A DNA stretch of 64,000 nt from Bacteroidota bacterium (GCA_016713525.1 JADJOZ010000007.1:19969-83968); one strand, 5' to 3'. Counted from the stretch's first letter, positions 2,665 to 23,033 are shown. Translations and numbers: made by a program. The notes: generated from the sequence alone by a model not told the origin.

Positions 2665-5600
2665 TTATGATCGATTGATTTCCATCACCAAAATTCCAGT
2701 TCCATTGAATGGCACCGGATGAATTATCATTAAAATTCACGACTGTAGGGGCACATGATACCACGCTATTTAGTGAAAACTGTGCCTGAGGTCCTGTAAC
2801 CTGAACATGTGCAACAGGATTAATTACCTGAGAACAACCTGATGGAGAAGTTGCAGTTAGCGTAACGGGATAAATACCATTTGCTGAATAGGTATGAGAA
2901 AGAGTGTTACCATTCAGTACAGTACCATCACCAAAATTCCATTGCAGGGAACTTACATTTGAGGATGAATCGGTAACATTAAAAGTAAACGGACTGCACC
3001 CAACCGAATCGGATACAGCAAATGCCAGAAACATGGCATTGATATTAGGCTTTGATACAGTACGCATACATCCGTTCACATCAGTTACCGTTAAAGTTAT
3101 TACGCCTGCAGGTTTATGATTGTATGTATGAACCGGATTTTGAAGAGTTGAAGTAGCACCATCACCAAAATCCCATAACCAGGAAACTGCATCACTGCTG
3201 CTATCGGCAAACACAGCTTGCACCGGTAAGCATTCCGACGACTGCGTATAATTGAAATTTGCCTGTAGGAATGGTACAAAAACAGCATTCTGTACGGTAT
3301 GAACATCACTGCATCCATCAGCATTGCTAATAAGAGTAACATGATGCGTGCCGGGTAATGAATAAGTATGCGATGGATTTTGTTGAGATGAAGCTGTGCC
3401 ATCACCAAAATTCCATTGCCATGAGCTAGCACCAGTAGAATTATTGGTAAAATTCAGAATTGTACTTCCGCAACCATTCGTTGTAGTGGTGAAAGTAAAA
3501 TCTGATACGGGCTTTCTGATATTAACGAGATATGGAACATTCCAAGTGTAAGTACATCCAAGAGAGTCTGTAACTGTTAACGATACCTGATAACTTCCTG
3601 AATCGGCATATACATGAGAAGGATTTGCAAGTGCTGAGGTGGTTCCATCTCCAAAATCCCAGGAGTAATTAGGGAAGTTCAGATAACCGCTTGTGAAATG
3701 AACAGTGTCATTTGCACAGGCTCTGCGAGTGCTGGCATTCACTGATGCTCCAATAGCAGCATAGTAACTGCGTGACATAAAATCGGTACAACCCAATGAA
3801 TCGGTTACCGTTAGTGATACAATATAATTCACTCCGGTAGTTGTGTAATTGTGAACCGGATTCTCTAATGTAGAAGTTATTCCGTCACCAAAATTCCATA
3901 ACCATGAAACCGCGTTTACAGATGTATTCTGAATAGTTAAAGTTGAACCCAGACAATTGTTGGTATAAGAAAGCTGGAAATCGGCGCTTGAACCGGTAAG
4001 ATAAATTGGTGCCGGCTGAACAATCGTATCGGTATTTCCGAAGGCGTCCCAGGTTATCAGACTAACAGTATAAGTACCGGGATCGGTATAAATATGTACT
4101 GGATTCTCGATTGTAGAAGTATCTCCATCACCGAAATCCCATAGCCAGGCCACAGTATTCAGAGCAGGATTTGTAAAATTCATCTGGTAAGGAATACAAC
4201 TGTAAACCGGATCAGGAACATGAAGCGAATCGCCTCCCCCACCTGGTAAAACAGTTCCGGAGCCAATAGTAACACCAGTATAAACATAAGTGAAAGTACA
4301 CTCCGGATTTGAAATTGTAAGCGTAATGTTGTAGGGTCCGGGGACAGTGTACTGATGAACAGGATTCATTAATGTAGAGGTTCCTCCATCACCAAAATCC
4401 CATAACCACATAGTTGCACCCGAACTGTTTGCATTAAATGTTGCATTTATAGGCAAGGTTGTATCAGGAGATGTTGCAGTTGCATTGGCAACCAAAGGAA
4501 GGAAAGTCACAGCATAGTTATGATACTCGGTATATGTACATCCTTGTGCAGTAGTTATTGTAAGCGAAACATTGTACGATCCCGGAGTAGTATACACATG
4601 TACCGGATTTTGTTGTGTTGATGTTGTGCCATCACCAAAATCCCATAGCCAGGATACTGCATTTACAGACTGGTCATTGAAAGTTGCTGTGAATGGCGGA
4701 CATAATGTTTGAGTTACATCAAATCCTGCAGAGCCGCCGTTGATTATATAGGTTGCATAGGGAGAAATACTCTGTGAACAACTGCTTCCGGAAGACTGAG
4801 TCTGAAGAGTAACAATATAAGTTCCCGGATCGGTGTAGGTATATACCGGATTTTGAACAGTGGCAGTTTCGCCATCGCCAAACGACCACAACCATCCGGA
4901 AGTTGCCGGAGAATTGTCGTTTAAATTGATAGTAAAAGGAGCACATGCAGTAACAGGTGCCGCCGGGTTAAAATTGTTTACGCCTGAATTAACCTGAATA
5001 TTATTTGGTAAGGTATAGGTATCGGTGCAACCTGTAACATCGGTGATAGTTAAAACAACTGTATAAGTTCCATTAGAAGCATAAACATGAGACGGAGATT
5101 GTTGCGTTGAGCTATTTCCATCGCCAAAATTCCAGTTGTAAGTATAAACACCCCCACCAGGATGTGCAAAATTAACGGTGTGAGGAGCACAACCGGCAAG
5201 ATCGTCGGCAGTAAAAGTTGCATTTGCTTCCGAAACAATAATAGGCAAGAATGAAGAAGCTTGAGCTGTACAACCAAAATTATTTACGATGTTCAGCGTA
5301 GTATAAAATGTTCCGGGTGTGGTATAAGTATGAACAGGTTGAAATCCGTTTCCTGAAGAACCATCTCCGAAAGTCCATGCATAAGTGTTATTGGAACCGG
5401 TCGATAAATTTACAAATGCTGGAGTTAAAGGCGCACACCCCTGATTATTGTTGATCAGGTAATAGGCAGTGGGTTTAGGATAAGATTGAACATGAACCGT
5501 GTCGGAATTAGTACATCCATTTGCATAAATTACTTCCAATTCCAGAATATAATTTCCGGCATAATTGTAAGCATGATATGGATTATAAAGCTGAGAAGTG

Positions 5601-6559
5601 GTAGTGTCACCAAAATCCCACGACCATGAAGTAATGTTGGGAGTTGTTGTTGAAAAAGAAGCATAGATTGGTGTACACTTTTGAAGCGGACTGGTTGATG
5701 CAATTACTGGAACCGGATTTGATTTCACTTCGATATAATCAACAACGGTTACTGTATCGGTACAGCACAATTGATTGGAGGTAATTAAAGTAACTGAATA
5801 AATGCCTGCATTTGAATAAATGTGAGATGGAGATGGTTGTGTTGAAGTAGTTCCATCACCGAATTGCCATAAATAAGATGATGCAGATGATGCCTGAGCA
5901 GTGAACAGAAAGGGTTGCGATACATTACAGGTGCTGGTAATATTTGCCAGAAAAGAAGCAGCCGGATTACTGAGAATGGTGATTAAAGCATTTTTAGATA
6001 AAGAAGCGTTGCATCCCAGTGAAGTATTGTAAGCAATTAAAGTTACTGTGTAGGTACCGGGAGCTGTATACTGGTGAAAAGGATTAACTGATCCGGAAGT
6101 TATTCCATCACCAAAATCCCATAAACATGAATCATATCCGGAAGATTGGTTGGTAAATTGAATCTGATTACTTTCCAGACAAAATAAAGTTCCGGAAGCA
6201 GTAAATGCAACCTGAGGTTGTTGCTGAACTTGTATAAAGCCTGAATGAACCACTGAATCGGACTGACCCGAACTACTTGTTGCAATTAATTTTACGTTAT
6301 AGCTGCCGGTATTCAGGTAAATATTTGTTGGATTTTGAGCAGTGGAAAAATTTCCATTTCCAAAGTCCCAGAAATATGAAATAGCATTAACAGAAGTATT
6401 GGTAAATTGTACAGAAAGAGGAATACAATCAGATTGCTGGTTTACTGTAAAAGAAGCATCAGGTACCTGTGCAAATGAGGTTGAAGCTTGCAATATGAAT
6501 ACTGCAACCAACAAATAAATCAGGTTTCTAATGCCCTTGAATATCCTTTCAGGATTCAT
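2603..6559 (-). CDS. N-terminal part of the giant PKD-repeat adhesin (signal peptide plus about 16 tandem PKD domains)
   Basis: N-terminal signal peptide MNPERIFKGIRNLIYLLVAVFILQASTSFAQ. There are 16 WxFGDG PKD signatures spaced about 80 aa apart. The run of gggg at 2616-2619 on the + strand causes the apparent frameshift. Confidence 0.8.
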   Translation of the reverse strand: MNPERIFKGIRNLIYLLVAVFILQASTSFAQVPDASFTVNQQSDCIPLSVQFTNTSVNAISYFWDFGNGNFSTAQNPTNIYLNTGSYNVKLIATSSSGQSDSVVHSGFIQVQQQPQVAFTASGTLFCLESNQIQFTNQSSGYDSCLWDFGDGITSGSVNPFHQYTAPGTYTVTLIAYNTSLGCNASLSKNALITILSNPAASFLANITSTCNVSQPFLFTAQASSASSYLWQFGDGTTSTQPSPSHIYSNAGIYSVTLITSNQLCCTDTVTVVDYIEVKSNPVPVIASTSPLQKCTPIYASFSTTTPNITSWSWDFGDTTTSQLYNPYHAYNYAGNYILELEVIYANGCTNSDTVHVQSYPKPTAYYLINNNQGCAPLTPAFVNLSTGSNNTYAWTFGDGSSGNGFQPVHTYTTPGTFYTTLNIVNNFGCTAQASSFLPIIVSEANATFTADDLAGCAPHTVNFAHPGGGVYTYNWNFGDGNSSTQQSPSHVYASNGTYTVVLTITDVTGCTDTYTLPNNIQVNSGVNNFNPAAPVTACAPFTINLNDNSPATSGWLWSFGDGETATVQNPVYTYTDPGTYIVTLQTQSSGSSCSQSISPYATYIINGGSAGFDVTQTLCPPFTATFNDQSVNAVSWLWDFGDGTTSTQQNPVHVYTTPGSYNVSLTITTAQGCTYTEYHNYAVTFLPLVANATATSPDTTLPINATFNANSSGATMWLWDFGDGGTSTLMNPVHQYTVPGPYNITLTISNPECTFTYVYTGVTIGSGTVLPGGGGDSLHVPDPVYSCIPYQMNFTNPALNTVAWLWDFGDGDTSTIENPVHIYTDPGTYTVSLITWDAFGNTDTIVQPAPIYLTGSSADFQLSYTNNCLGSTLTIQNTSVNAVSWLWNFGDGITSTLENPVHNYTTTGVNYIVSLTVTDSLGCTDFMSRSYYAAIGASVNASTRRACANDTVHFTSGYLNFPNYSWDFGDGTTSALANPSHVYADSGSYQVSLTVTDSLGCTYTWNVPYLVNIRKPVSDFTFTTTTNGCGSTILNFTNNSTGASSWQWNFGDGTASSQQNPSHTYSLPGTHHVTLISNADGCSDVHTVQNAVFVPFLQANFNYTQSSECLPVQAVFADSSSDAVSWLWDFGDGATSTLQNPVHTYNHKPAGVITLTVTDVNGCMRTVSKPNINAMFLAFAVSDSVGCSPFTFNVTDSSSNVSSLQWNFGDGTVLNGNTLSHTYSANGIYPVTLTATSPSGCSQVINPVAHVQVTGPQAQFSLNSVVSCAPTVVNFNDNSSGAIQWNWNFGDGNQSIINDPVHIYNEPGIYDVTPYSD

Positions 6560-7743: not shown

Positions 7744-8931
7744 ATGAGAATAAATCTAGCACTTTTGATAGGGATAATCATATTTTCTAATCAGACATTT
7801 GCACAATATACCTGGACAGCCAAGAATGATTTCCCCGGTTTGAAGCGATATGCTGGCAGTGCCTTTTCTATCAACAATTTAGGCTATTTTGGTTGTGGTG
7901 CGGATTTTACAGGCAATTTTAGCAATGTATATAAAGATTTCTGGCAATATAATACAGGATCAGATACCTGGATTCAAATTGCTGATATTCCTCTCCAAAG
8001 ATATAGTGCAATTGACTTTAGTTTAGACGGATTTGGGTATGTCGGTACCGGCTGGACAGTTTTGGGATCTGCTGCAACAAGTACATTTTATAAATATAAT
8101 CCAACTTCAAACACATGGACACTAATTGCACCCTTACCAGGATCAAACCGTTATACCGGAGTTGGGCTTTCAAATGGTCTTAAAGGTTATGGAGGTTTTG
8201 GTTATGCTCCTTTGAGGAAAGATTTTTATGAATACAATGCAGTAAATGATATTTGGACTCCTGTAACAACATTTCCCAGTACAGAGCGACAAAGCCTCAA
8301 TGGCTTTACCATTGGTACCGATGTTTATGTCGGCTGTGGATATACAAGCAGTCCAAGAAATGACTTTTGGAAATACGATCCTGTCAATAGTACATGGACA
8401 CAGACAGCAGATTATCCGGTGCAGAATTATGCCAGTGTTGGATTTACCTTAAATAATAAAGGGATTGTTGGATTGGGTAGGAATAATACTGTCCAATTTA
8501 ATTCGTTTTTTGAATATGATCCTACATCTAATAGTTGGACAGCACTACCACCTTTTCCATCAACTGGCAGAGAAGGATCTGATGTTTTTGTGTTAAATGG
8601 CTGTGCTTACATCATTGGGGGAAGAACTGGTTCAAGTAATTATTTGAAGGAGGTGTGGCAATTGTGTTTGACAACCAGTTTGGCAGATAACGAAGAGTTA
8701 CCATTTGAATTAAATTTATATTCTCAGGATCAATTTATCAACATTGCTTTCAATAGCGAGGACGGCTCTAAGTATGAACTTAATATTCATGATGTGACAG
8801 GGAGGAAAATTTTCACAGGTAAATTGCAATCTTCATATAACGAACAAATAAATGTCGCTTCAGGGATTTATGTTTATGCTGTTAACAAAAACAACAAAAT
8901 CGTAAAAACCGGAAAGGTTGCTGTAAATTGA
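7744..8931 (+). CDS. Kelch/galactose-oxidase-like beta-propeller protein with a T9SS C-terminal sorting domain
   Basis: Signal peptide, repeated W/Y-rich blades (DFWQYN, FYKYNP, FYEYN, FWKYDP, FFEYDP), and a C-terminal ...IHDVTGRKIFTGKLQ...GIYVYAVNKNNKIVKTGKVAVN typical of a type-A T9SS CTD. Confidence 0.7.
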   Translation: MRINLALLIGIIIFSNQTFAQYTWTAKNDFPGLKRYAGSAFSINNLGYFGCGADFTGNFSNVYKDFWQYNTGSDTWIQIADIPLQRYSAIDFSLDGFGYVGTGWTVLGSAATSTFYKYNPTSNTWTLIAPLPGSNRYTGVGLSNGLKGYGGFGYAPLRKDFYEYNAVNDIWTPVTTFPSTERQSLNGFTIGTDVYVGCGYTSSPRNDFWKYDPVNSTWTQTADYPVQNYASVGFTLNNKGIVGLGRNNTVQFNSFFEYDPTSNSWTALPPFPSTGREGSDVFVLNGCAYIIGGRTGSSNYLKEVWQLCLTTSLADNEELPFELNLYSQDQFINIAFNSEDGSKYELNIHDVTGRKIFTGKLQSSYNEQINVASGIYVYAVNKNNKIVKTGKVAVN

Positions 8932-9198
8932 AAACTAATGTTCGCCTCAATAATTAAATAAGTGATTATAAGCGCATTACGTAAACTAACTTTGTAATTT
9001 GACCTATTTTCCAGCTGAGTGATAGTTTAGAACATTGAGTTTACACATTTCAGAAAAGAAATCTCTGATTTATTACTTTTTACGGCACATTTCACTGAAG
9101 GTCTCCTCAGTTCAAAGACAAGTAGTGATAAGTTATCAAAATTGCGCTAAATTTGCAATAAGTACTATTCATGAATATTTCAAGAATGGCATAAAACT

Positions 9199-9984
9199 AT
9201 GAATTCTATAAAAACAGTAATACTTTGTGGTGGATTGGGAACCCGATTAAAGGAAGAAACGGAATACAAACCCAAGCCGATGGTAGAAGTCGGAGGTCGT
9301 CCGATCTTGTGGCACATTATGAAAAACTACAGTCATTTTGGTTTCAATAAGTTTGTTTTGTGTTTAGGATATCGCGGTGATGTAATCAAGAATTACTTCA
9401 TGAACTATGAGATAAGGAACAATGATTTCACGCTAACACTCGGTAATGGCAACATGCAGGTGCATAATTCACACAGTGAAAATGGCTGGGAAATAACCTT
9501 TGCGGAAACAGGGCCTTTATCGATGACGGGCTCACGTGTTAAGCAGATTGAGAAATATATTGAAGGTGATGAATTCATGCTTACGTATGGAGATGGTGTA
9601 TGCAATGTAAATATTGAAAAACTGCTAACATATCACCGTTCACATGGAAAAATCGGAACGGTTACCGGGGTACTGCCTCCCTCCCGTTTTGGTGAACTTA
9701 TTACTGATGGAGAACGTGTGCAAAGCTTTAACGAGAAACCTCAGGTACATACAGGAGGTTTTATAAATGGCGGGTTTTTCATTTTCAATAAAAAATTCTT
9801 TGAATATCTGGATACAGAATCGGGATGTATCCTCGAACGCACACCGCTTGAAAAACTTGCATCAGAAGGGCAACTGAACATGTACAGCCATGAGGGATTC
9901 TGGCAATGTATGGATACCTATCGTGATTATGAATATCTCAATAATTTGTGGAATTCCCATAAAGCAGAGTGGAAATGCTGGTAG
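9199..9984 (+). CDS. rfbF: Glucose-1-phosphate cytidylyltransferase
   Basis: Nucleotidyltransferase motif ILCGGLGTRL at the N-terminus. It is 261 aa, typical for RfbF/DdhA, and overlaps the next gene by 16 bp. Confidence 0.85.
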   Translation: MNSIKTVILCGGLGTRLKEETEYKPKPMVEVGGRPILWHIMKNYSHFGFNKFVLCLGYRGDVIKNYFMNYEIRNNDFTLTLGNGNMQVHNSHSENGWEITFAETGPLSMTGSRVKQIEKYIEGDEFMLTYGDGVCNVNIEKLLTYHRSHGKIGTVTGVLPPSRFGELITDGERVQSFNEKPQVHTGGFINGGFFIFNKKFFEYLDTESGCILERTPLEKLASEGQLNMYSHEGFWQCMDTYRDYEYLNNLWNSHKAEWKCW

Positions 9985-11072
9985 AAAATTTCTCGAATGC
10001 AGAAGTTCTGGATAGTTACTCCGGAAAGAGGGTATTTATAACCGGACATACCGGTTTCAAAGGCTCGTGGCTGAGTCTATTATTGAATTATGCAGGAGCA
10101 GTAACCAAAGGGTATGCACTGGCACCATTATATGACAATTCACTGTACAAATATTTGGAAAGCAATTTGGATATTGAATCTCAAATTGATGATATCCGCA
10201 ATATTGAAAAATTAAAAAAGTCAATTTCTGATTTCAAGCCTGATTTCGTATTTCATTTAGCCGCACAGCCGCTGGTCAGGTATTCTTACCAATATCCTTT
10301 AGAAACATTTGAAGTAAATGTAATTGGTACGGCTCATGTTCTGGAAGCAATCCGATCACTTCAAAACAAATGTACAGCAGTTATAATTACCACCGACAAA
10401 GTTTATGAAAACAATGAAAGTGGAAATGCCTTTAAAGAAAGTGATCCATTAGGTGGACATGATCCATATAGTAGCTCAAAGGCAGGAGCAGAAATCATTA
10501 CACAATCCTATCAACGATCATTTTTTCCGGTTCAGATGCTCCATAATCATCATAAAGCAGTAGCAACTGCCAGGGCAGGAAATGTAATTGGTGGTGGGGA
10601 CCGAGCAACTGACCGCATCATTCCGGATTTAGTGAGAGCACTTGAGAATAACCTAACATTGGAAGTAAGAAATCCATCCTCCATCCGTCCCTGGCAGCAT
10701 GTTCTTGATCCGCTGGCAGGATATTTAAAGCTTGGGTTGCTACTTAATTTTGATCCACTCAAATATACCGGAAGTTATAATTTCGGCCCATTGGAATCGG
10801 ATCAGTGTACAGTTAAAGAAATTGTTGAGATTGCTATCAAGCAATGGGGATCAGGAAACTACGAAACACCTGAACAATTCGATCAACCACATGAAGCCAC
10901 AAACCTAAAACTCGATATCACAAAATCACTTACTCAACTACAATGGAAACCAATATGGGATGCAAAAACAGCAGTAGAAAAGAGTATTCAATGGTACAAA
11001 AAAATAAACGAAACTTCTGGTAATGCAATGAAATGTTGCATGGTTAATGTTGAGGAGTTTTATAAGAATTAG
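9969..11072 (+). CDS. rfbG: CDP-glucose 4,6-dehydratase
   Basis: Rossmann motif FITGHTGFKGSWL and the YSSSKAGAE catalytic Y-x3-K region. It is 367 aa. Confidence 0.85.
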   Translation: MEMLVENFSNAEVLDSYSGKRVFITGHTGFKGSWLSLLLNYAGAVTKGYALAPLYDNSLYKYLESNLDIESQIDDIRNIEKLKKSISDFKPDFVFHLAAQPLVRYSYQYPLETFEVNVIGTAHVLEAIRSLQNKCTAVIITTDKVYENNESGNAFKESDPLGGHDPYSSSKAGAEIITQSYQRSFFPVQMLHNHHKAVATARAGNVIGGGDRATDRIIPDLVRALENNLTLEVRNPSSIRPWQHVLDPLAGYLKLGLLLNFDPLKYTGSYNFGPLESDQCTVKEIVEIAIKQWGSGNYETPEQFDQPHEATNLKLDITKSLTQLQWKPIWDAKTAVEKSIQWYKKINETSGNAMKCCMVNVEEFYKN

Positions 11073-11081
11073 AAAATACAA

Positions 11082-12305
11082 ATGAGTTCAGTATATCAAA
11101 ATAAAATATCTTCTTGCAGAATCTGTGGTAGCAACCAACTTAAAACTGTAATTCATTTAGCTAAGATGCCATTCACTGATGAATTTATTTCAAGTGATCA
11201 ATTGGGAACTGAGTTTTTGAGCGACATAGATATTGCAGTTTGCAAACAATGTGCTTGTGCCCAAAATATTAATGATACTGATATGGGTGCATATTACCAG
11301 GATTACACTTATTCTGTACAATCATCTGGTTTTGCTTTAAGTTTCATGAGTACACTGGCAGAACGGATCAAATCCAATTATTTTTCCAACAAAACTGCTC
11401 CCTCAATGCTTGAAATAGGAAGTGGTACTGGAGAACAATTAATGGCATTCAAAAAATTAGGCTTTCGTGTAATTGGCGTTGAACCATCTGATAAACTTTC
11501 CGAATACGCCAATAGCCAGGAAATCAAAACATTAACAACTTTTTTTGACGAGAATACAACTCAGATTGTTGATCCGGAGTTCAGAACTGTTGATGCTATT
11601 GTTACAAGCTATACGTTCGATCATATTCCGAGACCAGTAGAGGTTCTGAATAATATTCATAAAATACTAAATGATGATGGTTTATTAATCATTGAAGTTC
11701 ATAATCTGGAGTTAATCAGACAACGAAATGAATTTTGTTTATTCGAACATGAACATTACACGTACTTGAACGAAAGAACTATGCGATATCTTTTGAATCA
11801 GAACAATTTTGATGTCGTAACTTTTAAACTATTAGAGGAAAGCGAAAAGAGAGCAAACTCCTTGTTAGTAGTTGCGAAAAAAGCAAATAAATCAAACATA
11901 AGTGAAGTTGATGTTTTAAATGAAATCCATTTGCTGGATTCATTAAATAACGAAATCAATAAATCAATTTCACGTATTGATAATTGGCTAAATGAAAATA
12001 AAAAATACAAAATTGTAGCATACGGTGCCGGTGGCAGAGGGATAATGACAATTGCTGCGTTGGCCAATTCAAATTATATTCAATATATTGTAGATAAAAA
12101 TCCGAAATCAGATAACATTTTTGCACCAAAATCACATCTTCCTGTATATGGCATTGAGAGATTAGCAGAAAATCGTGCTGATAAAATACTGATATTTAGC
12201 TTTGGATATTACAATGAAATAGTTTCAGAATTAACCTCAAAATTTGGGTATACCAAAGACCAGTTCATAAGCATTCTCGAACTATTAGAACCTGCCAATG
12301 CCTGA
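11082..12305 (+). CDS. NDP-hexose C-methyltransferase-like enzyme (N-terminal Zn-ribbon plus class I SAM methyltransferase plus C-MeTase C-terminal domain)
   Basis: CRICGS...CKQCAC zinc-ribbon, SAM motif LEIGSGTGEQL, and a ~400 aa length as in TylCIII-type sugar C-methyltransferases. Confidence 0.65.
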   Translation: MSSVYQNKISSCRICGSNQLKTVIHLAKMPFTDEFISSDQLGTEFLSDIDIAVCKQCACAQNINDTDMGAYYQDYTYSVQSSGFALSFMSTLAERIKSNYFSNKTAPSMLEIGSGTGEQLMAFKKLGFRVIGVEPSDKLSEYANSQEIKTLTTFFDENTTQIVDPEFRTVDAIVTSYTFDHIPRPVEVLNNIHKILNDDGLLIIEVHNLELIRQRNEFCLFEHEHYTYLNERTMRYLLNQNNFDVVTFKLLEESEKRANSLLVVAKKANKSNISEVDVLNEIHLLDSLNNEINKSISRIDNWLNENKKYKIVAYGAGGRGIMTIAALANSNYIQYIVDKNPKSDNIFAPKSHLPVYGIERLAENRADKILIFSFGYYNEIVSELTSKFGYTKDQFISILELLEPANA

Positions 12306-13180
12306 AATAATCATACATGGAGCATCTAGTTTTTTAGGCAAAGCATTTTGCCAGACGTCTTTATTCGAATAACATTCCATTTATTATTGTTGCCAGAAAC
12401 AAATCAGATTTATCTGTTTGGGAAAATTTGCAAGGCATCAAACTGCTCAGGTATAATAATTCAATAGGTGAAATCAATTTAAATATCGAATCATCTTCTA
12501 CATTCTACGAATTTTCCTGGCAGGGCGTATTTGGAGTCGACAGAAATGATCCTTCTCAAATTACAACTAACATTCCATTAATAATCTCTTCAATCGAATT
12601 CGCAAATAGAATTGGATCTAAACATTGGATTGGGATTGGCTCTCAAGCTGAATATGGAAATCTGGATAAGAAAATTTCTGAAAGTGATTTTTGTAATCCA
12701 ACAACATTGTATGGAAAATCAAAGCTAATTTCAGGTAATATATCAAAAGAATTGTGTAAGTCTTTTAATATGTAACATTCATGGCTACGATTATTCTCGG
12801 TTTATGGTCCAGATGACAATCATGAATGGCTGATTCAATATTTGATAAAAAAAATGCTGAAAAATGAGCCAATAGATGTAACCAAAGCAGAACAGATATG
12901 GGACTATCTATTTGTAGAAGACATTAGTGATTTACTATTAAAGTTATCAAATTCGGGAGGGGTCGGAATTGCAAATCTTGGAAGTGGAAATGGCATTGTA
13001 GTAAAAGAAATTATTAATATCATAAAAGACAAAACCGGCTCAAATTCAATCATTAATTTTGGAGCAATTCCATATCGGCCAGATCAAGTCATGAAAATGG
13101 AGGCCGATATCAAAAGCTCAGAGAACATACCGGATGGAGTCCGAATACAGACTTTGAAACAGGTATTCAGAAAACAATAA
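12298..13180 (+). pseudogene. NAD-dependent sugar epimerase/reductase (SDR family), disrupted by one frameshift (~12340) and one in-frame TAA (12773-12775)
   Basis: MPEIIIHGASSFLGK continues as HFARRLYSNNIPFIIVARNK in the +1 frame. The catalytic LYGKSKL motif is present. Then ...KSFNM*HSWLRLFSVYGPDD has a stop in the same frame just before the conserved RLF.VYGP motif. Confidence 0.6.
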
Positions 13181-13211
13181 ATTCATTAATGGTTAAGAAC
13201 TGAAATATTTA

Positions 13212-14007
13212 ATGACGAAAACTAACACTATAGCTAAAAATATCCGTCGTTCCATACTACAGATGAATCATAGATCAAATGCATCGCATTCCGGATCTGC
13301 CCTGTCAATAGTTGAGTTGTTGACTGTATTATACTTTAAGTACTTAAACATCGACCCGAAAGAGCCGAAAAATGACAAAAGGGACAGATTTATTCTAAGC
13401 AAAGGACACGCTAGTAGTGCATTATATTCGGTATTAGCTGAAAAGGGCTTTTTTTCCAAAAACATATCTTGACAAATTTTACATTGATAACGGGATCCTT
13501 CCCGGACATGTCGATAAAGATGCTGCTCCTGGCTTGGAATGTGCTGCAGGTTCATTAGGTCATGGACTTTCAATTGGTGTAGGCATGGCAATTGCATCTA
13601 AATATAAAAAACACAATTCGAAAGTTGTAGTTTTGATCAGCGATGGTGAATTAAATGAAGGATCAATTTGGGAGCCACTACTTCTTGCCCCTCATTTAAA
13701 TCTAAATAATCTGACTGTTATTATAGATTATAACAAAATACAGAGCTTCGGCCTTACTAATGAAATTGTAAATCTCGAACCTCTAAGCGATAAACTAATC
13801 GCATTTAATTGGGATGTTTTTGAAATTGACGGACATAACTTTGAAGAAATAGAAACGGCGTTGAATTCCAAATCCTCAAAACCCAAAATTATAATTGCAC
13901 ATACCATCAAAGGGAAAGGTGTAAGTTTTATGGAAAACAAGCTTGAATGGCATTATAGATCTCCTAATGATGAATTACTCAAGAAAGCGTTGGCAGAATT
14001 AAAGTAA
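13212..14007 (+). CDS. Transketolase, N-terminal (ThDP-binding) subunit; frameshift near 13458-13470
   Basis: ...LSKGHASSALY then ...GSLGHGLSIGVGMAIA and ...LISDGELNEGSIWE. The ORFs 13212..13472 and 13534..14007 are joined by sequence continuing FFSK/YLDKFYIDNGILPGHVDKDAAPGLECAAGSLGHG in the alternate frame. Confidence 0.75.
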
Positions 14008-14032
14008 TAAATAAATAAGGCACTGCTTAGTC

Positions 14033-14952
14033 ATGAGAAAAACGTTTATAAATACACTAGTCGAACTGGCAAGAAAAGACAAAAGAATTTTCTTAATAAC
14101 ACCAGATATAGGATATTCGGTTTTGGAACCTTTCATGCATGAATTTCCTGAACGCTATCTTAATGTCGGAGTTGCTGAACAGAATGCAGTTTCCATTGCA
14201 GCAGGACTTGCTTTAAGTGGTTTGATTCCGTATGTATATACAATTATGCCATTTGTAGCCATGCGTCCATATGAGCAAATCAGAGTTGATGTTGCATATA
14301 TGAACACAAATGTAAGAATAATTGGAGTTGGTGCTGGTTTTTCATATGGAGCTGCCGGTGCAACTCACATTCTATTGAAGATATTGCAATTATGAGATGC
14401 ATGCCAAATATGACAGTAATCTGTCCGGGAGATCCGTGGGAAGTAGAACAATCGATAATTGCATCCCAAAGCTATGAAGGACCTATGTTTTTCAGACTAG
14501 GCAAACAAGGTGAACCCAACATCAATTCTAATAAATCCAAATTTAAAATTGGTAAAGGGATTACAATAAAAAAGGGTAGTGATTTACATATCATCACCAC
14601 CAGTAATACTCTTGAAATGAGTAATGAGATCTGTGAATTATTGAAGAAAAAAAATCTATCAGCATCATTGATAAGTATGCATACCATAAAACCATTAGAC
14701 ACACGACTGATCAATTCCTTACTTAAGACCAATAAACCTATTTTCACTATTGAGGAACATAGCAGAATTGGAGGATTGGGGTCAGCAGTGGCTGAGATCA
14801 TAGCTGAATCAAAATTCCATCCGGTTTTTAAACGATTTGGTCTCGACGATCAGTTTTCTCACTATGTGGGATCACATTCTTTTATAAAAGAAAAGTATGG
14901 ATTGACTATTCCAATAATAACAAGCAAAATTCTAAAATCAATTTTAAACTAA
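14033..14952 (+). CDS. Transketolase, C-terminal (pyrimidine-binding) subunit; frameshift near 14365
   Basis: GVAEQNAVSIAAGLALSG and GAAGATH followed by HSIEDIAIMRCMPNMTV in the +1 frame. ORFs 14033..14395 and 14392..14952 form one protein. Confidence 0.75.
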
Positions 14953-14954
14953 TT

Positions 14955-15712
14955 ATGGCAAAGAAAAAAATAGAAATAAAAAGAAATATTTCAAATAGAG
15001 AAATTAGTCAACGAGAACACTTTTTACAATTGTTCAAACAAACTCCAATTCCTGATGAAGAAATTCAATTAAACTTAGGTTTATATATCAATCGACAAAA
15101 CTTATCTAGAATAATATTCATGCATGAGTTATACAAGAAAATAATTAACACTACAGGTATTGTAATTGAACTCGGATGTAGATGGGGACAAAATTTGGCT
15201 CTGTTTCAATCTTTTAGAGGAATGTATGAGCCATACAATTATAATAGGAAAATTGTAGGATTTGATTCGTTTGAAGGCTTCAAATCTATTCACAAAAAAG
15301 ATGGAAAAGCATCAATAGTTTATGAAGGTGCTTATGCCGTCACTTCAAATTATGAGGAACATCTTGACAAAGTTCTTGCACATCATGAAACTGAAAGTCC
15401 AATATCTCACATTAAAAGTATGAAATCATTAAGGGAGATGCAACCAAAACACTCGAAGCATACTTAAATACTAATCCCGAGACCATTATAGCTCTAATAT
15501 ATTTTGATTTTGATATCTATGCACCCACTAAAAGATGTTTAGAACTAATAAAAAATCATATTACAAAAGGTACTGTCATTGGATTTGATGAATTAAACTG
15601 GCATGATTACCCTGGAGAAACATTGGCATTAAACGAAGTTTTTTGGTTTAGACAAATATGCAATACACAGATCTCCCTTTGCCCTACTCCATCGTACATC
15701 GTAATTGATTAG
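14955..15712 (+). CDS. TylF/MycF-like class I SAM-dependent O-methyltransferase; frameshift near 15415
   Basis: IVIELGCRWGQNLALF SAM-binding region. The alternate frame continues IIKGDATKTLEAYL...VIGFDELNWHDYPGETLALNE, which is typical of the TylF family. Confidence 0.55.
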
Positions 15713-15726
15713 ATTTCAAGGTTAAC

Positions 15727-16820
15727 ATGACAACATTTCAAAAACTTTATCAATTACCATTCCAACATGGAATAGATCTGTACTTATAACAGGTTTACTT
15801 GATCAAATTTGCGATCAAGTAATTTCAGATAAAATTGAAAATGATGTAGAACTTTTGATTTCCAATAATGGTTCAGATGATAACACAGAAAATGCTTGTC
15901 TGGCTTATAGAAATAAATTCAATTTCATTACATATCACAATAATGGAAGAAATATAGGAGCACAGGACAATGTACTAAAATGTTTTGAACTGGCATCAGG
16001 AAAGTATATCATTCTGTTTGGTGACGATGACAGAATCCAAACCGGTGCCATTAAACAAATTTTACATGTTCTAAGATCAAATACAGGGATTGATTTGATA
16101 CTAGTTAGTTCAAATTTAAAGTCAAATCCTTTTAGTGATGGTTCATTTATAAATCTATTACAACTAGTAGAAAACTTTTACTATAATATTGGCAATGCAG
16201 GTTTATTCATCTATAAAGTATCTCTTGCAAAAAATGTACTTGCAAAACATCAATTTTCTGATTTTAATAAAAGTTGGCCTCAAACCCAGTTAATGGTTCT
16301 TGGAATAGAAGATATTCACAAGTCATCATGTTTAATAACAGAAATTAAAATAAATGCTCCGGGACTTCATGAACAAGTTATGGTATATAGTTCATATTAT
16401 CTTTATCGTACAACATTTTTTGATTTAATTGATTCAATTGAATCTATAAAACATGAAATTGATCACAAGGTATATATATCCTCAAGAAGCTACCTAAGTA
16501 GAAACTTATCACAAGTTTCATTTAACATATTACAATGTGGGATATTTGTAGATGATACAACTCTTAGAATTAAAACCAGAAAACATATATTTAGTAATTT
16601 AAAATTGTTCAATACAAAAGAAAAAATGTATATGAGTTGTATTGCAAGTATATTATATCTACCTACTTTCTTGTCGAAACCACTATCAGACATTTTCATT
16701 TTCATTTTAAAAGGGCGAAACGGACTTATAAAGAAAAATAAATTTGTTCTAGCGGAAAAACAAAAAAAATCAAATCAATTGAACTCCAAATCAAATGAAA
16801 TAAGAGAATTTAGTTTTTGA
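15727..16820 (+). CDS. Family 2 glycosyltransferase; start codon ATG 15727 is separated from the main ORF by a frameshift in an A5 run (15741-15745)
   Basis: MTTFQK joins SITIPTWNRSVL, the GT2 N-terminal motif, and ILFGDDD is the DxD motif. The ORF track starts only at an internal TTG (15855). Confidence 0.6.
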
Positions 16821-16944
16821 ATTTTGACTACAAAAAATATTTCTTCTTTGTTAATTATGCGATAATCCCAAAATAGATGATAAGAGCAACTTTACATTCC
16901 CCTAATTACATCATTTAAAATCGCCTCTCAAGCTTTAATAATAA

Positions 16945-18126
16945 TTTCAACTTTTATATTCATTATCAATTGCTAAAGGAGCTGGCACATGGAACTATAT
17001 TGGAAATTATAACGGAGGAAATTGTGACCTTACGTTTTACTTCACAATTGGACAAAAGGGATATGTTGGAGGAGGAAGAACTTCAATTTCAATTTTTAAA
17101 AGCGATTTCTGGGAATTTAATCCAACAAATAACACATGGACTCAATTAGCAGACTATTTAGGAGGTGACAAAGGGCAGCAAATTGCATTTGCAAGCCCAG
17201 TCAAAGGTTATGTTGGTTTAGGCTTTGATGGAAATGCATTCTTCAATGACTTCTATGAATATAACCCATTGACAAACATCTGGAGTCAGAAGGCAACATT
17301 CCCAGGATCTGGAAGATATTCATCATTATCATTTTACATCAATGGATATGGTTATGTTGCAACAGGGTTTGATGGAAATCCTAAAAAGATGTATGGCAGT
17401 ATAATCCTATATCAGATACATGGGTTCAAAAATAATTTTCCAGGCCCACCAAGACAAGGCGCAAACGGTTTTGCTATTGGAGATGCCGGATATATATTAG
17501 CAGGATTTAATAATGGAACTTCATATGATTTCTGGAAATATGATCCAATTAACGATTTATGGGTTCAAAAAACTAACTTCCCTTCAATACCTAGAAGAGC
17601 TATGGCATACTTTGTGATTAATGGCACTGCATACGCTGGATTAGGTTACGACAACACAGTATTTCACACCGATTTCTACTCATTTGACACAACTAATAAC
17701 CAGTGGACATCTGAAACCAACTTCGGTGGTTCAGCTCGATACCTCACGTTTAGCTTTAACATTAACAATTCCGGATATCTCGGAACAGGTTCTAATGGGC
17801 AAATAAGTTCTCCAAACTTTTTAAATGATGTATGGGAATTTATTCCAGGGTCAATTGGTCTAGACCAAAATCAGGATGTCTTTTACCAAGTCTGGTTCAA
17901 TCATGAAAATAATTCGTTAAATTTAGAATTAGAAGTGAATGCTGGCAGGATATGTATGATTAACATTTTCAATCAAAATGGTCAAGTGGTTTCAAGTGGT
18001 AAAATAAACAGCATTAGGGGAAATCTAGAATATAAAATTAATGCGAATTTATCACCTGGAATTTACTTTTATTCAATCCTTTTTAGTTCAAATAAAAGAA
18101 AGACAGGGAAATTTCTGGTTAAGTAA
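16945..18126 (+). CDS. Kelch-like beta-propeller T9SS cargo protein, paralog of 7744..8931. No in-frame ATG or signal peptide is found upstream, so it may be N-terminally disrupted.
   Basis: The frame is open from 16945 (GTWNYIGNYNGG..., FWEFNP, FYEYNP, FWKYDP, FYSFD blades). The C-terminal T9SS CTD reads ...MINIFNQNGQVVSSGKINS...GIYFYSILFSSNKRKTGKFLVK. The ORF track begins at an internal TTG, 17269. Confidence 0.6.
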   Translation, partial: FQLLYSLSIAKGAGTWNYIGNYNGGNCDLTFYFTIGQKGYVGGGRTSISIFKSDFWEFNPTNNTWTQLADYLGGDKGQQIAFASPVKGYVGLGFDGNAFFNDFYEYNPLTNIWSQKATFPGSGRYSSLSFYINGYGYVATGFDGNPKKMYGSIILYQIHGFKNNFPGPPRQGANGFAIGDAGYILAGFNNGTSYDFWKYDPINDLWVQKTNFPSIPRRAMAYFVINGTAYAGLGYDNTVFHTDFYSFDTTNNQWTSETNFGGSARYLTFSFNINNSGYLGTGSNGQISSPNFLNDVWEFIPGSIGLDQNQDVFYQVWFNHENNSLNLELEVNAGRICMINIFNQNGQVVSSGKINSIRGNLEYKINANLSPGIYFYSILFSSNKRKTGKFLVK

Positions 18127-18310
18127 TTCGGCATCACCAATCGATCATAATTTTCAATGAGAATTAATTTACTATATACGAGAACAAAGTGAAATTTACA
18201 GGGCGAGAACTTTATGGTGAACACTTAACCAAAATTTTTGATACCAGAAGTACAGAAAGATACAGATGACAATATTAATTACAAAAGTAGTATGCAAATC
18301 TAAAATTGTT

Positions 18311-19927
18311 CTATCTAAACACTGATACTGTTCCAGTCAACTTATCAATTCGGCTATAAAGTATAAAATAGTATACTCCTTCGGGCACATTCACTCCATT
18401 GTGTTTACCATCCCATTTAAATTGCTTATTATCTGATTGAAATACCTGTTGCCCCCAGCGATTAAAGATTTTAATGCTAATCTCTTCACATAGTTCTGTA
18501 TATTTTAATTCAAAAAGATCATTAAGCCCATCATTATTGGGGGTAAAGACATTTGGAATAAATAAACCAGCAATTGAATTTTCATCAATTATTAAAGTTC
18601 TCTGTGCAGTATCTGCACAGATAGTTCCTTCATTAACAATTAACATCACTTCATAAAATCCAGATTGTTGATACTCATAAATGGGGTTCTGTTCGAAACT
18701 AGTGCCCCCATCTCCAAAATACCAACTCCAAGAGAATTCGTTTAAGCTCGAATCAAAGAAATTAACCAGTTTCGTACATTCATTTATACTGAAAGAAAAA
18801 TTTGCTTCGGGTTGCTGTATCGCATTTATTTCTAAAACCTGGATAAGGCTATCAATACCACATTCATTTTCAGCAATGAGCAAAACATTATACGAACCTA
18901 TATCCTGATACAGATGTATAAAGGACGTATCAAAACTTGTTGTTCCATCACCTAAATACCAACTAATTGAATCATAGAATTCTGATAAATTCATAAAACT
19001 TACCGATGGATCGCACAGTTGTTCAACATAAGTAAATGAAGCATTGGGCATTTCAAAATTCATGAGATTCAATTGTGAAGTTAAAGTATCGGCACCACAT
19101 GAATTACTTGCAATTAGAGTAATATCATAACTGCCAGAATCGGCATAAGTATGAAAAGGAGATTGAGAAGAACTTGAAGAGCCATCACCAAAATCCCAAA
19201 ACCAACCAGTAGTATTTAGTGATGAATCATAAAATGTGACAATGTTGCTGCACCATGTTGTATCCAACGAAAAAGCTGCAATCGGAATGGAACTCGGATT
19301 AATTGTAATTTCAACTTCAAATGTATCACTTCCGCAAGAATTAAATGCAATCAACGAAATAGTATAAGTACCAGGTAGCGCGAAACTATGCAACACATTT
19401 GGAGAATTTCCAGTAGTACCATCGCCAAAATCCCAAATTAAAGTACTATCATTTTGAGAAGTAGAAGTTAAAATTACCTCCAGCTCACAATTCACAATAG
19501 AATAATTAAAGGAGGAAACCGGATCTAACGGAGGGCCTACATGAATGTTTTGGATAAATGTATCTATACATCCAAAGCTATTTGAAATAACAAGCTGTAC
19601 ATTGTAATCTCCGGTATCCGGGAAAACATGGACAGGTGACATTGTTGAAGACAACACTCCATCACCGAAATTCCAATAAGAATTGCTTAACATTGGTGAA
19701 GTATTTGTAAAAGTTACAGCTAAACCTGAGCAATCGAAGCTATAAGTAAAAGAAGCTAAAGCAGAAGGTAGCACAGTTATGGTAACCGTATCCGTAGCTG
19801 TCAAAGGACACAAACCAACACTTGTAACAGTTAATATGTAAGTTGTGGTAACTGATGGTGACACGACAGGGTTAGGCAAAGTTCCAGCTCCATTATTCCA
19901 TAAATAATTTAATCCGGGTTGAGGCAA
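18311..19927 (-). CDS. PKD-repeat protein ending in a gliding-motility-associated C-terminal domain (CHU_C / T9SS type B CTD). It is the third piece of one gene spanning 18311..21119.
   Basis: Five PKD signatures (WNFGDG, WDFGDG x2, YLGDGTTS, YFGDGGTS). C-terminus ...IPNVFTPNNDGLNDLFELKY...KWDGKHNGVNVPEGVYYFILY. There is no signal peptide on this piece. Confidence 0.75.
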   Translation of the reverse strand: MPQPGLNYLWNNGAGTLPNPVVSPSVTTTYILTVTSVGLCPLTATDTVTITVLPSALASFTYSFDCSGLAVTFTNTSPMLSNSYWNFGDGVLSSTMSPVHVFPDTGDYNVQLVISNSFGCIDTFIQNIHVGPPLDPVSSFNYSIVNCELEVILTSTSQNDSTLIWDFGDGTTGNSPNVLHSFALPGTYTISLIAFNSCGSDTFEVEITINPSSIPIAAFSLDTTWCSNIVTFYDSSLNTTGWFWDFGDGSSSSSQSPFHTYADSGSYDITLIASNSCGADTLTSQLNLMNFEMPNASFTYVEQLCDPSVSFMNLSEFYDSISWYLGDGTTSFDTSFIHLYQDIGSYNVLLIAENECGIDSLIQVLEINAIQQPEANFSFSINECTKLVNFFDSSLNEFSWSWYFGDGGTSFEQNPIYEYQQSGFYEVMLIVNEGTICADTAQRTLIIDENSIAGLFIPNVFTPNNDGLNDLFELKYTELCEEISIKIFNRWGQQVFQSDNKQFKWDGKHNGVNVPEGVYYFILYSRIDKLTGTVSVFR

Positions 19928-20032
19928 GCTTCCTAATTGAATTGATTCACCCTCACAAATAGTTTTATCAATTCCGGCAGCAGCACTGGGAACTGGACTA
20001 AAATTAAGATTGAAAGCGACTTTTATTAATCC

Positions 20033-20662
20033 CTACCCCTCCATCAACCGCATCATGAATAGTACCATTGCATTGTCCATTTCCTTAACTCCACCCAAAA
20101 TTGAAGTAGTAACATTGACAGGAAAACCAGATAATCCAGATTTTAGGATCACTCCTCCACCTCCTCCACCTCCATTTCCATGGCATTGGGGAATGTAAAA
20201 TTGATCTCCCCCTTTTCCACCGTTTACATTCAGCTGCAAATTTCCTGTGAACGAGCTTACATCTAATATGATTGTCCCACCACCTCCACCTCCAGCACCA
20301 TCAATTCCAGCAGCGATTGCCACAGAATTACCTTGAGATCGAATTTGATTACCATTCCCTATAATTGCACTTGCACTCACAAAAACAATTCCTCCACCAT
20401 CTTCACCATCTGAGCCTTCAGAATTATTTTGATAAATGTCATTACCTCCGCCTCCCCCATTAGCACATGCACCACGACCAGCTGTCAATGTAGATGGAAT
20501 GTCAGCAATACTTTCACCTTTTTCACCTCCTCTTCCGGTATTATAATTAAAAGCATAACTATTAAAAAAAGCTGAATAATAATTAAGAGAGGCATTTCCT
20601 CCTCGAAAACCTTTCCCATTCACATCAATATTAGCATTTAAAGTAACTGATCCTTGAAGCAA
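20033..20662 (-). CDS. Glycine-rich middle segment of the same surface-protein gene (frameshift-separated)
   Basis: GGGGND..., GAGGGGGG and GNGGGGGGG runs. It overlaps the upstream piece 20631..21119, and its stop lies about 100 bp before the PKD piece resumes. Confidence 0.5.
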   Translation of the reverse strand: MLQGSVTLNANIDVNGKGFRGGNASLNYYSAFFNSYAFNYNTGRGGEKGESIADIPSTLTAGRGACANGGGGGNDIYQNNSEGSDGEDGGGIVFVSASAIIGNGNQIRSQGNSVAIAAGIDGAGGGGGGTIILDVSSFTGNLQLNVNGGKGGDQFYIPQCHGNGGGGGGGVILKSGLSGFPVNVTTSILGGVKEMDNAMVLFMMRLMEG

Positions 20663-21119
20663 ATAAAGCTAAAACACCCCCTATTTGCCCATTCCATGGA
20701 GCTGCAGTTAATGTTCCCGTAACGGTAACATTTGTATAGGAAGGTACCCGGACCAATTGCAATGACCCTGTGGCAGTATAAGAATTCAAAAGTTTAGTAT
20801 TCAGGACTAAACTACCTGTTGAGACACTCTTAACAGTAGAAAATTCATAATTTCCTGAATTTCCATGATTAAGAACTGAGCCAAAATTACTTGTATTGCT
20901 AACATCAATTGTTGCACCTTTCATTTGAATAAGCAACACGGTATCATCTACACTAAAACCAGCCGTGGAAGTAACATAAAGTGAGTCAATGCAGTTTCCT
21001 CCTCCAAGCTGATTCACTTTAACATAATGATTTATCACTCCCGATATATTGGTATTTTGCGAATAAACCGGGATGCTCCAAAAAGCTAAGCAACTTAATA
21101 TGTAAAAAATCCGGGCCAT
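20631..21119 (-). CDS. N-terminal signal-peptide segment of the same surface-protein gene
   Basis: MARIFYILSCLAFWSIPVYSQ signal peptide, followed by a beta-rich T/S/N-rich region. Confidence 0.5.
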   Translation of the reverse strand: MARIFYILSCLAFWSIPVYSQNTNISGVINHYVKVNQLGGGNCIDSLYVTSTAGFSVDDTVLLIQMKGATIDVSNTSNFGSVLNHGNSGNYEFSTVKSVSTGSLVLNTKLLNSYTATGSLQLVRVPSYTNVTVTGTLTAAPWNGQIGGVLALFASRISYFKC

Positions 21120-22695: not shown

Positions 22696-23033
22696 GCGCT
22701 ACCCCATTCTTCATAAGCATGTAAAATGACTTCAGAATCGGAATGCGTATGAAACTGGTGACCCTTTTGCAGGAGCAGTTGTTTTATCTCCACATAATTA
22801 TATATTTCACCATTATAAACCATGGTGAAATTCTTATAGTGCATTGGCTGATTGGCAGCCTCTGTCAGGTCAATAATGCTGAGTCGGTTGTGTCCGAGAA
22901 AAATATGATCATCATTCCAAATTCCGGTATCATCGGGACCACGATGGTGTTGAATATGAAGCATCTGATCCAATAACCGGGAATTATCGGATGAAGGTTG
23001 AGTTTGATCGAGTATGCCGGCTATTCCGCACAT
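22659..23033 (-). CDS. asnB: AsnB-family amidotransferase, N-terminal class II glutamine amidotransferase domain
   Basis: MCGIAGI N-terminal nucleophile Cys2, then RGPDDTG and HNRLSIID. Confidence 0.75.
   Translation of the reverse strand: MCGIAGILDQTQPSSDNSRLLDQMLHIQHHRGPDDTGIWNDDHIFLGHNRLSIIDLTEAANQPMHYKNFTMVYNGEIYNYVEIKQLLLQKGHQFHTHSDSEVILHAYEEWGSACVNHFVGMWAL

Follow-up and report, generated by a model that had tools for sequence, protein, structure and literature searches.

We analyzed a 64,000-nucleotide stretch of DNA from a Bacteroidota bacterium (GCA_016713525.1, JADJOZ010000007.1:19969-83968), referred to here as the window. Between positions 9199 and 16820 of its plus strand, eight homologies to sugar-nucleotide and glycan genes follow one another with nearly no intergenic space. 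These are rfbF, for a glucose-1-phosphate cytidylyltransferase (9199..9984, TIGR02623); rfbG, for a CDP-glucose 4,6-dehydratase (9975..11072, TIGR02622); a gene for a sugar C-methyltransferase (C-MT) of the TylC3/TcaB9 type with 407 amino acids (aa), recognized by Pfam and PDB matches (11082..12305); an extended short-chain dehydrogenase/reductase (SDR; 12298..13203, Pfam Epimerase at 77 bits); the N-terminal, thiamine diphosphate (ThDP)-binding subunit (TK-N; 13212..14007, PDB 6YAK) and the C-terminal, pyrimidine-binding subunit (TK-C; 14033..14952, PDB 6YAJ) of a transketolase (TK); a CalS11-like nucleoside diphosphate-sugar O-methyltransferase (O-MT; 14955..15712, PDB CalS11); and a family-2 glycosyltransferase (GT2; 15727..16820, Pfam Glycos_transf_2 at 58.5 bits). 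All eight had been named at these positions in an original prediction made from the sequence, and all eight homologies are there. That prediction had also treated every gene as intact, and three-frame translation and tblastn show that only the first three are whole. The other five are interrupted and, once repaired, encode proteins of 301, 264, 306, 252 and 364 aa, the same lengths as their homologues. With slightly better than even confidence, the whole is best explained as an operon whose products build a tailored CDP-6-deoxyhexose and pass it to a glycosyltransferase. At its center lies a TK whose active site departs from the canonical one.

The rfbF product scores 345 bits against TIGR02623 (curated equivalog cut-off 300.25), covers positions 1-255 of the 255 in the profile, and is 100% identical to its counterparts in sibling metagenome-assembled genomes (MAGs). 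The rfbG product reaches 451 bits against TIGR02622, for which the curated equivalog cut-off is 278.45. With both homologies above these cut-offs, RfbF would make CDP-glucose and RfbG would convert it to CDP-4-keto-6-deoxy-D-glucose, as had been predicted. An ATG at 9975 gives rfbG a product of 365 aa, matching the gene calls of its homologues, and a GTG at 9969 is also a possible start. The 16-bp overlap of rfbF and rfbG described earlier holds only with the GTG; with the ATG the overlap is 10 bp. The core of the earlier pathway, in which CDP-4-keto-6-deoxyglucose is elaborated by a C-MT, a ThDP enzyme, a reductase and an O-MT before transfer by the GT2, is retained here. Its description of the sugar as dideoxy is not, as the window cluster holds neither an E1/E3 3-dehydrase nor a 2,3-dehydratase, and on gene content the sugar would be 6-deoxy.

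The C-MT contains Methyltransf_13, Methyltransf_23 and Methyltransf_14 domains (PF08421, 47.5 bits with a cut-off of 31.3; PF08484, 47.1 bits with a cut-off of 23.5), and its closest solved structures are TylC3 (4RV9, 4.2e-30), KijD1 and TcaB9. Across an alignment of 14 homologues with 45-69% identity, the zinc cysteines C12, C15, C54 and C57, the S-adenosylmethionine (SAM) motif E111-I-G-S-G-x-G117 and the residues E222, H223, E224 and H225 are invariant, and the stretch FEHEH aligns with the YHEH active site of 4RV9. With the four-cysteine zinc site, the SAM motif and the His-Glu-His motif all present, the call of a TylCIII-like enzyme is well founded. The enzyme thus shares the three-domain architecture and all three motifs with TylC3, TcaB9 and KijD1, at an identity of only about 25-30%. 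The substrates of those enzymes are dTDP-2,6-dideoxy or 3-amino sugars, whereas the substrate of the window C-MT would be CDP-linked with its 2-hydroxyl retained. From these structural relatives, methylation is predicted at the carbon beside the 4-keto group, most likely C-3.

The two TK subunits together hold the Transketolase_N, Transket_pyr and Transketolase_C domains, detected by Pfam on the fragments. Their best PDB matches are the chains of the split TK of Carboxydothermus hydrogenoformans (6YAK at 3.5e-76 for TK-N, 6YAJ at 1.4e-59 for TK-C), with which they share the two-chain architecture, the ThDP-binding Asp and Asn, the catalytic histidines and, in the window and most copies, the activating Glu. 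Against NCBIfam profiles, TK-N scores 251 bits as transketolase versus 48 bits as DXS; TK-C gives its highest score, 206 bits, with DXS, and TK-N also draws weak E1_dh and DXP_synthase_N matches. The TK-N signature is GSLGHG / SDGE, and the equivalents of E. coli His26, His66, His100 and His261 are retained; together with the equivalent of His473, these catalytic residues are conserved in 69 loci. At the ThDP/Mg2+ site the Asp and Asn are kept, but the GDG motif reads SDG in all cassette copies. Most copies, that of the window among them, have the cofactor-activating Glu (VAEQN), but the motif is AEAN in the Campylobacterota copies.

A different picture emerges at the substrate-pocket residues that correspond to His461 and Asp469 of the E. 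coli enzyme. In canonical TKs, His461 is a phosphate contact, and Asp469 determines which acceptor is used through a hydrogen bond to the 2-hydroxyl of the aldose. The window TK-C carries the signature VGAGFSYGAAGATHH where the canonical H..GEDG.SHQ occurs. Every cassette TK-C, over a range of 33%-100% identity, reads VGxG..YGxxGx[ST]HH, as compared with THAG..GEDGASHQ in 6YAJ and GADGxTH in DXS. Set against the Carboxydothermus enzyme alone, THAG...GEDGASHQ of 6YAJ becomes VGAG...GAAGATHH, and GSLGQG of 6YAK becomes GSLGHG. In every cassette copy, then, the His461 equivalent is Gly and the Asp469 equivalent is lost, GEDG having become G-x-x-G with no acidic residue; the equivalents of Arg358, Ser385 and Arg520 remain in nearly all TK-C copies. 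Cultured Sulfurimonas, Sulfurovum, Arcobacter, Paenibacillus and Cohnella encode proteins with the same signature at ~60% identity. Judged by its sequence, the cassette enzyme is best described as TK-like, failing one defining feature of a canonical transketolase, the His461/Asp469 pocket.

To describe the distribution of the cassette, we drew 77 loci from a C-MT alignment with one genome per species and searched them by tblastn with the eight repaired proteins; the loci were selected via two peptide motifs of this C-MT subfamily, so that all counts describe that subfamily and not C-methyltransferases at large. Both TK subunits lie within 10 kb of the C-MT in 64 of the 77 loci, in more than ten phyla, and in nine of the 13 remaining loci the contig stops a short way downstream. 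All six core genes (rfbF, rfbG, C-MT, SDR, TK-N and TK-C) occur together in 49 loci with a median span of 6.55 kb, on one strand in 45 of these 49. A second methyltransferase is optional across loci; where present, it resembles either CalS11 or, as a protein of 376 aa, the C-MT. Divergent Bacteroidota (L002-L004) carry intact cassettes in the same order. Further hosts are found in Verrucomicrobiota, Planctomycetota (including Ca. Kuenenia), Acidobacteriota, Chloroflexota, Pelagibacteraceae and other Alphaproteobacteria, SAR86, Desulfobacterales and Solirubrobacterales, as well as in Microcystis, Cyanobium, Paenibacillus, Clostridium, Duganella and Paramagnetospirillum. Clustering of all open reading frames (ORFs) around the TK pair revealed no further universal partner such as an epimerase or an E3 reductase. 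Synteny comparison therefore bears out the cluster as conserved in relatives and far beyond them, and it is very likely that the region is a functional, conserved CDP-sugar cassette.

Several variant cassettes are informative about the role of the TK. On a plasmid of Paenibacillus cellulosilyticus (NZ_CP054609.1; L091, 10220-12127), the SDR and TK-N form one 635-aa protein (Epimerase at 19-247, Transketolase_N at 383-612), encoded between rfbF-rfbG-C-MT and TK-C. Because of this fusion, the reductase and the TK very probably act together. The complete genome of Sulfurimonas autotrophica has the order RfbF-RfbG-TKN-TKC-SDR-RfbH with no C-MT; its TK pair is 67% and 60% identical, and its RfbH scores 721 bits over a cut-off of 423. 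This gene layout matches that of yersiniose synthesis. A third arrangement, in Arcobacter caeni (MUXE01000007.1; L095, 3768-14252), comprises RfbF, RfbG, a 581-aa YerE-like thiamine pyrophosphate enzyme, TK-N, TK-C, SDR and an RfbH-like protein. A TylF-like methyltransferase is inserted here between the TK subunits, and the cassette adjoins a Maf flagellin glycosyltransferase and flagellin, which suggests that it serves flagellin glycosylation. The constant partners of the TK across variants are thus the two enzymes for CDP-4-keto-6-deoxyglucose and the reductase, and the variable partner alters C-3 by methylation or deoxygenation. Either alteration would remove the H-C-OH group beside the ketone, and this would fit the loss of the Asp that reads the 2-hydroxyl of the acceptor.

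The repaired SDR carries GASSFLG (GxxGxxG), GSQAEYG and YGKSK (S...YxxxK), as well as an Arg after beta-2 that is conserved across loci. Its PDB matches are compatible with a GalE-type epimerase. Since the Arg after beta-2 is conserved, we favor an NADPH-dependent reductase, and the SDR is probably a ketoreductase of that kind. The O-MT, once repaired, is 81% identical to an intact 252-aa gene product of L003. Residues 16-249 of its 252 match CalS11, which serves as TDP-rhamnose 3'-O-methyltransferase in the biosynthesis of calicheamicin, at 2.9e-58. The description of this enzyme as TylF-like is correct at the superfamily level; the window protein falls below the Pfam cut-offs for TylF (11.5 bits) and Methyltransf_24, both of which the Paenibacillus orthologue exceeds, and it is best called CalS11-like. 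CalS11 acts at the nucleotide-sugar stage on a TDP sugar, whereas the window O-MT, a predicted O-methyltransferase, would use a different, CDP-linked sugar. Within a species, the window-type O-MT is swapped for a second C-MT-like gene. This exchange covers a methyltransferase and GT2 module at 14906-16970, with breakpoints near both of these positions and 97-99% identity on either side. The window, L011 and L012 have the CalS11-like O-MT and one GT2; L005 and L010 have the 376-aa second C-MT-like protein (Methyltransf_23 and Methyltransf_14) and a GT2 that is only 43% identical. Such a module exchange is strain-level glycan diversification by cassette swap.

In the pathway we propose, the TylC3-type enzyme would act on CDP-4-keto-6-deoxy-D-glucose, after which the atypical two-subunit TK, on the strength of comparative genomics and its active-site changes, would form a ThDP-dependent carbon-carbon bond at the 4-keto carbon. 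The unit moved would most likely be a two-carbon ketol (hydroxyacetyl). The NADPH-type SDR might then reduce the carbonyl resulting from the TK step, the CalS11-like enzyme could O-methylate the nucleotide sugar, and the GT2 would pass the product to a surface glycan. Addition of a two-carbon branch by the TK is the least certain of these features, and we judge this prediction from sequence to be almost evenly balanced, falling just short of that mark.

Other functions for the TK have to be weighed against this proposal. It is scarcely credible that its genes encode the ordinary pentose-phosphate transketolase of the cell, present in a glycan locus by chance. The high similarity to the Carboxydothermus split TK, which has TK activity in vitro, and the retained phosphate-binding Arg and Ser equivalents would suit such a role, but the genes are linked to CDP-sugar genes in 64 of ~68 informative loci from many phyla, and likewise in Sulfurimonas, Cohnella and Arcobacter; they overlap their operon neighbors, TK-N occurs fused to the SDR, and every copy has lost the His461 and Asp469 equivalents. 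The pair thus belongs to a signature-bearing group tied to CDP-sugar genes and is not a housekeeping Tkt, in line with the view taken originally. A second possibility is that the pair resembles DXS or the E1 component of 2-oxoacid dehydrogenases, decarboxylating pyruvate and delivering an acetyl or 1-hydroxyethyl branch as do YerE, AviB1/B2 and AlmDI/DII. The DXS score of TK-C and the weak E1_dh and DXP_synthase_N matches of TK-N point that way, and known lipopolysaccharide branches of this type derive from pyruvate (PMC12247030). Yet TK-N scores far higher as transketolase than as DXS, all TK catalytic histidines are kept, a genuine split TK provides the closest structural match, and the Asp common to DXS (GADG) and TK is missing from the cassette TK-C as well. 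We therefore regard pyruvate-dependent branching as quite improbable, and we favor transfer of a ketol over that of a pyruvate-derived acetyl group because the donor-side histidines are retained.

It is also conceivable, if somewhat unlikely, that the TK adds no carbon at all and instead catalyzes a ThDP-mediated rearrangement or epimerization in which the C3-C4 acyloin bond is cleaved and re-formed. We give the same weight to the product this would yield, an unbranched-chain 6-deoxy-3-C-methyl-O-methyl-hexose of the vinelose type with a residue mass of 174 Da. CDP-vinelose is a CDP-linked 3-C-methyl, 2-O-methyl 6-deoxyhexose and so counts in favor of this idea. Several variant loci lean in the same direction and weigh against a branch-forming TK. 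A cassette in the Flavobacteriales MAG nzgw153 (L019, 7958-14000) has rfbF, rfbG, the C-MT, the SDR, a CalS11-like methyltransferase and the GT2 with no TK pair, and since it keeps every other gene, the pathway can apparently finish without the TK; the pair may be naturally absent from this locus, or it may be deleted in this MAG, which has 3.4x coverage. In Arcobacter caeni the TK pair is accompanied by a YerE-like enzyme, and for this reason the TK is not simply a replacement for YerE. The cassette of a Ca. Kuenenia stuttgartiensis MAG (L023, 2354-9503) has two methyltransferases, and the S-layer O-glycan of Kuenenia contains an unidentified 174-Da residue interpreted as a dimethylated deoxyhexose (PMC5088730). 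If that cassette makes the 174-Da residue, there is no net C2 addition. The link between the two is itself putative, however, and the TK-less locus is a single MAG of low coverage. In addition, none of the histidines that bind the CH2OH group of the donor has been lost, which is what true ketol transfer would require, and we know of no precedent for a TK reaction that adds no carbon. Branch formation by ketol transfer remains our working model.

The interruptions in the window copy require a separate explanation. From 12305 to 15855 the ORF list consists of fragments alone. Lesions were mapped from this list, three-frame translation and tblastn with intact homologues, followed by nucleotide comparison with related contigs, and they amount to nine in five genes, namely eight single-base indels and one TAA stop. 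On the plus strand, the SDR gene has two frameshifts and an in-frame stop (an A gained at 12340, a T at 12773 that creates TAA at 12773-12775, and an A lost at 13112), the TK-N gene one frameshift (a T gained at 13449, in a T run), the TK-C gene one (a C lost at 14368) and the O-MT gene three (an A lost at 15414, a T gained at 15639 and a C lost at 15675). In the GT2 gene, an A lost from an A run at 15740 uncouples the start. This run is A6 with an in-frame ATG in L011 and A5 in the window and in L012; the L011 comparison ruled out an alternative placement of the lesion as a G lost after the ATG. Nine single-base edits restore eight full-length ORFs.

For comparison we used six contigs from independent, mostly short-read assemblies (L005-L009 and L013; ~99.5% identity over the parts covered) and the sibling MAGs L010-L012, which are 97-99% identical to the window. 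Not one of the nine lesions is present in these sequences, save the 15740 deletion common to L012, and the codon at 12773 is CAA or GAA in the other assemblies. All indels are single-base and most fall within mononucleotide runs. Relative to the 99.5%-identical contigs, the ratio of indels to substitutions is ~4:13, far above that of normal decay. The sibling MAGs carry different single-base indels of their own in these genes, and four further sibling MAGs have a fragmented C-MT. No exact record match was found for the truncated TK-C fragment, such as would show its frameshift in another assembly. Genes elsewhere in the window are split by frameshifts too, all on the minus strand (766-6559, 20033-21119, 21211-23033 and 25080-26256). 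A PKD-repeat protein is divided at ~2616 into 632 and 1318 aa and is a single 1979-aa protein in sibling MAGs; an asparagine synthase, a UDP-GlcNAc 2-epimerase and one unannotated gene are likewise split. As unrelated genes are affected in this way, the assembly is error-prone well beyond the cassette. Moreover, a mixed population is hardest to polish in a strain-variable region such as this one. The source accession series presumably belongs to the Nanopore-plus-Illumina activated-sludge MAG project PRJNA629478. Genomes in the data set of that project are population bins and not strains (PMC9765116). In all likelihood, then, the nine lesions are long-read consensus errors in a population-bin MAG, from which it follows that the real organism probably has an intact operon.

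The competing account is that the operon is truly pseudogenized in this strain, five downstream genes having decayed after a first inactivation while rfbF, rfbG and the C-MT stayed whole. It draws on the packing of nine lesions into 3.4 kb with zero in the 3.1 kb upstream and on the breakage of adjacent polysaccharide genes. The TAA at 12773, moreover, is a nonsense substitution and not a homopolymer error, and within a shared 13.8 kb the window has six private indels as opposed to 0, 0 and ~1 in its siblings. Both observations count against consensus error. On the other side stand the absence of the lesions from independent assemblies (A5 at 15740 excepted), the single-base indels mostly in runs, an indel-to-substitution ratio too high for normal decay, the different private indels of the siblings along with the fragmented C-MT in four MAGs, and the breakage of unrelated genes. 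True decay is therefore unlikely, and we do not place it lower because one lesion is a nonsense substitution and because private indels are more numerous in the window than in its siblings. Programmed frameshifting, recoding and phase variation were rejected, as the eight shifts go in both directions, lie in short runs and share no slippery motif; a nonsense codon occurs apart from them, and no shift recurs in independent assemblies except A5 at 15740. For practical purposes, no biological meaning should be attached to the frameshifts of the window, which most likely reflect assembly noise.

The cassette is bordered by genes for Kelch-repeat proteins with type IX secretion system (T9SS) sorting domains. 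The upstream one (7744..8931, plus strand; Kelch_1 at 74.5 bits, Por_Secre_tail at 22 bits) matches MBK7968894.1 exactly, and the C-MT cluster includes MBK7968897.1 from the same MAG contig; we treat this gene as context, its membership in the pathway not being shown. The downstream one (16970..18126, plus strand; Pfam Kelch and Por_Secre_tail), likewise context, is interrupted, with a window ORF only from a TTG at 17269, and is intact in the siblings at 415-418 aa. Kelch-repeat/T9SS-sorting proteins also border the cassette in L003 (574-2889 and 12112-13230) and L004 (596-6472), and PKD/CHU_C proteins lie near Kelch-flanked cassettes as well. The glycan of the cassette and T9SS cargo may be linked. 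Over positions 12000-20000, which hold the downstream half of the cassette and the right flank, G+C is 0.32-0.34, compared with 0.37-0.41 elsewhere in the window, a drop typical of laterally exchanged surface-glycan islands. Farther downstream, an 810-aa membrane protein with a C-terminal YfhO-family match (27542-29974, minus strand) adjoins genes for a GT4, a PIG-L deacetylase and a hexapeptide acetyltransferase, and it may be an extracytoplasmic transferase of a larger glycan locus. Promoter and terminator scans of 8800-17400, and a search there with a Bacteroidota-type promoter pattern, performed no better than on shuffled sequence.

To our knowledge, YerE-type enzymes are the only ones for which ThDP-dependent branching of sugars on bacterial surfaces has been described. 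Tentatively, and with rather less than even confidence, we propose that the signature-bearing split TKs are a new family of sugar-nucleotide-modifying ThDP enzymes whose product is an undescribed C-branched eight- or nine-carbon sugar. If so, these would be the first transketolases shown to accept the ketone on a CDP-hexose, and the sugar would be displayed on the cell surfaces, S-layers or flagella of many environmental bacteria, among them SAR11, SAR86, Microcystis, anammox Planctomycetota, Verrucomicrobiota and Bacteroidota. Confirmation of the reaction would provide a new enzyme class for tertiary alcohols, reveal an unrecognized sugar in environmental glycans and explain the gene content of hypervariable surface-glycan islands. 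Dozens of species, some from abundant groups of marine and fresh waters, have an active-site-modified TK beside their CDP-4-keto-sugar genes, and cultured carriers with complete genomes are at hand in Sulfurimonas autotrophica DSM 16294, Cohnella abietis and Paenibacillus cellulosilyticus KACC 14175. The window copy is a noisy representative; the interest rests in the conserved and widespread cassette. Literature searches that paired transketolase with CDP-glucose, with C-methyltransferase or with nucleotide sugar gave papers but no description of it, and searches on vinelose, or with O-antigen gene cluster or glucose-1-phosphate cytidylyltransferase, returned no papers.

Among known systems, the CDP-yersiniose pathway of Yersinia pseudotuberculosis (DdhA-D, YerE, YerF) likewise starts with CDP-glucose and RfbF/RfbG homologues. 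In yersiniose synthesis, the ThDP-dependent YerE adds a C2 unit to CDP-3,6-dideoxy-4-keto-glucose, and reduction follows (PMC12247030). The likeness extends to the use of a ThDP enzyme on a CDP-4-keto sugar after C-3 has been altered and before a reductase acts, and the Sulfurimonas variant even has RfbH (E1). YerE, by contrast, is a pyruvate-using member of the decarboxylase (acetolactate-synthase-like) superfamily, whereas the cassette has a two-subunit transketolase, and C-3 is deoxygenated in yersiniose but would be methylated by the window-type cassette. A YerE-type protein (~580 aa, TPP_enzyme_N/M/C) is absent from the window cluster and was found beside the TK pair only in Arcobacter caeni. 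Also comparable are the two-subunit TKs suggested for miharamycin and amipurimycin biosynthesis in Streptomyces, which are proposed to transfer a hydroxyacetyl group to a keto sugar to give a tertiary alcohol (PMC12247030). These belong to secondary-metabolite clusters of Streptomycetes, have a nucleoside-type substrate and are unproven in vitro. According to a 2025 review, tertiary-alcohol-forming TKs are merely proposed, for miharamycin, amipurimycin and 13 in-silico candidates, all from Streptomycetes and none characterized, and lipopolysaccharide branching is ascribed to YerE-like enzymes (PMC12247030). By these descriptions the present cassette is set apart, as a cell-surface glycan operon acting on a CDP-hexose in more than ten phyla. 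We class it as putative ThDP-dependent tailoring of CDP-4-ketohexoses, a known kind of pathway, here with a TK-like ThDP enzyme.

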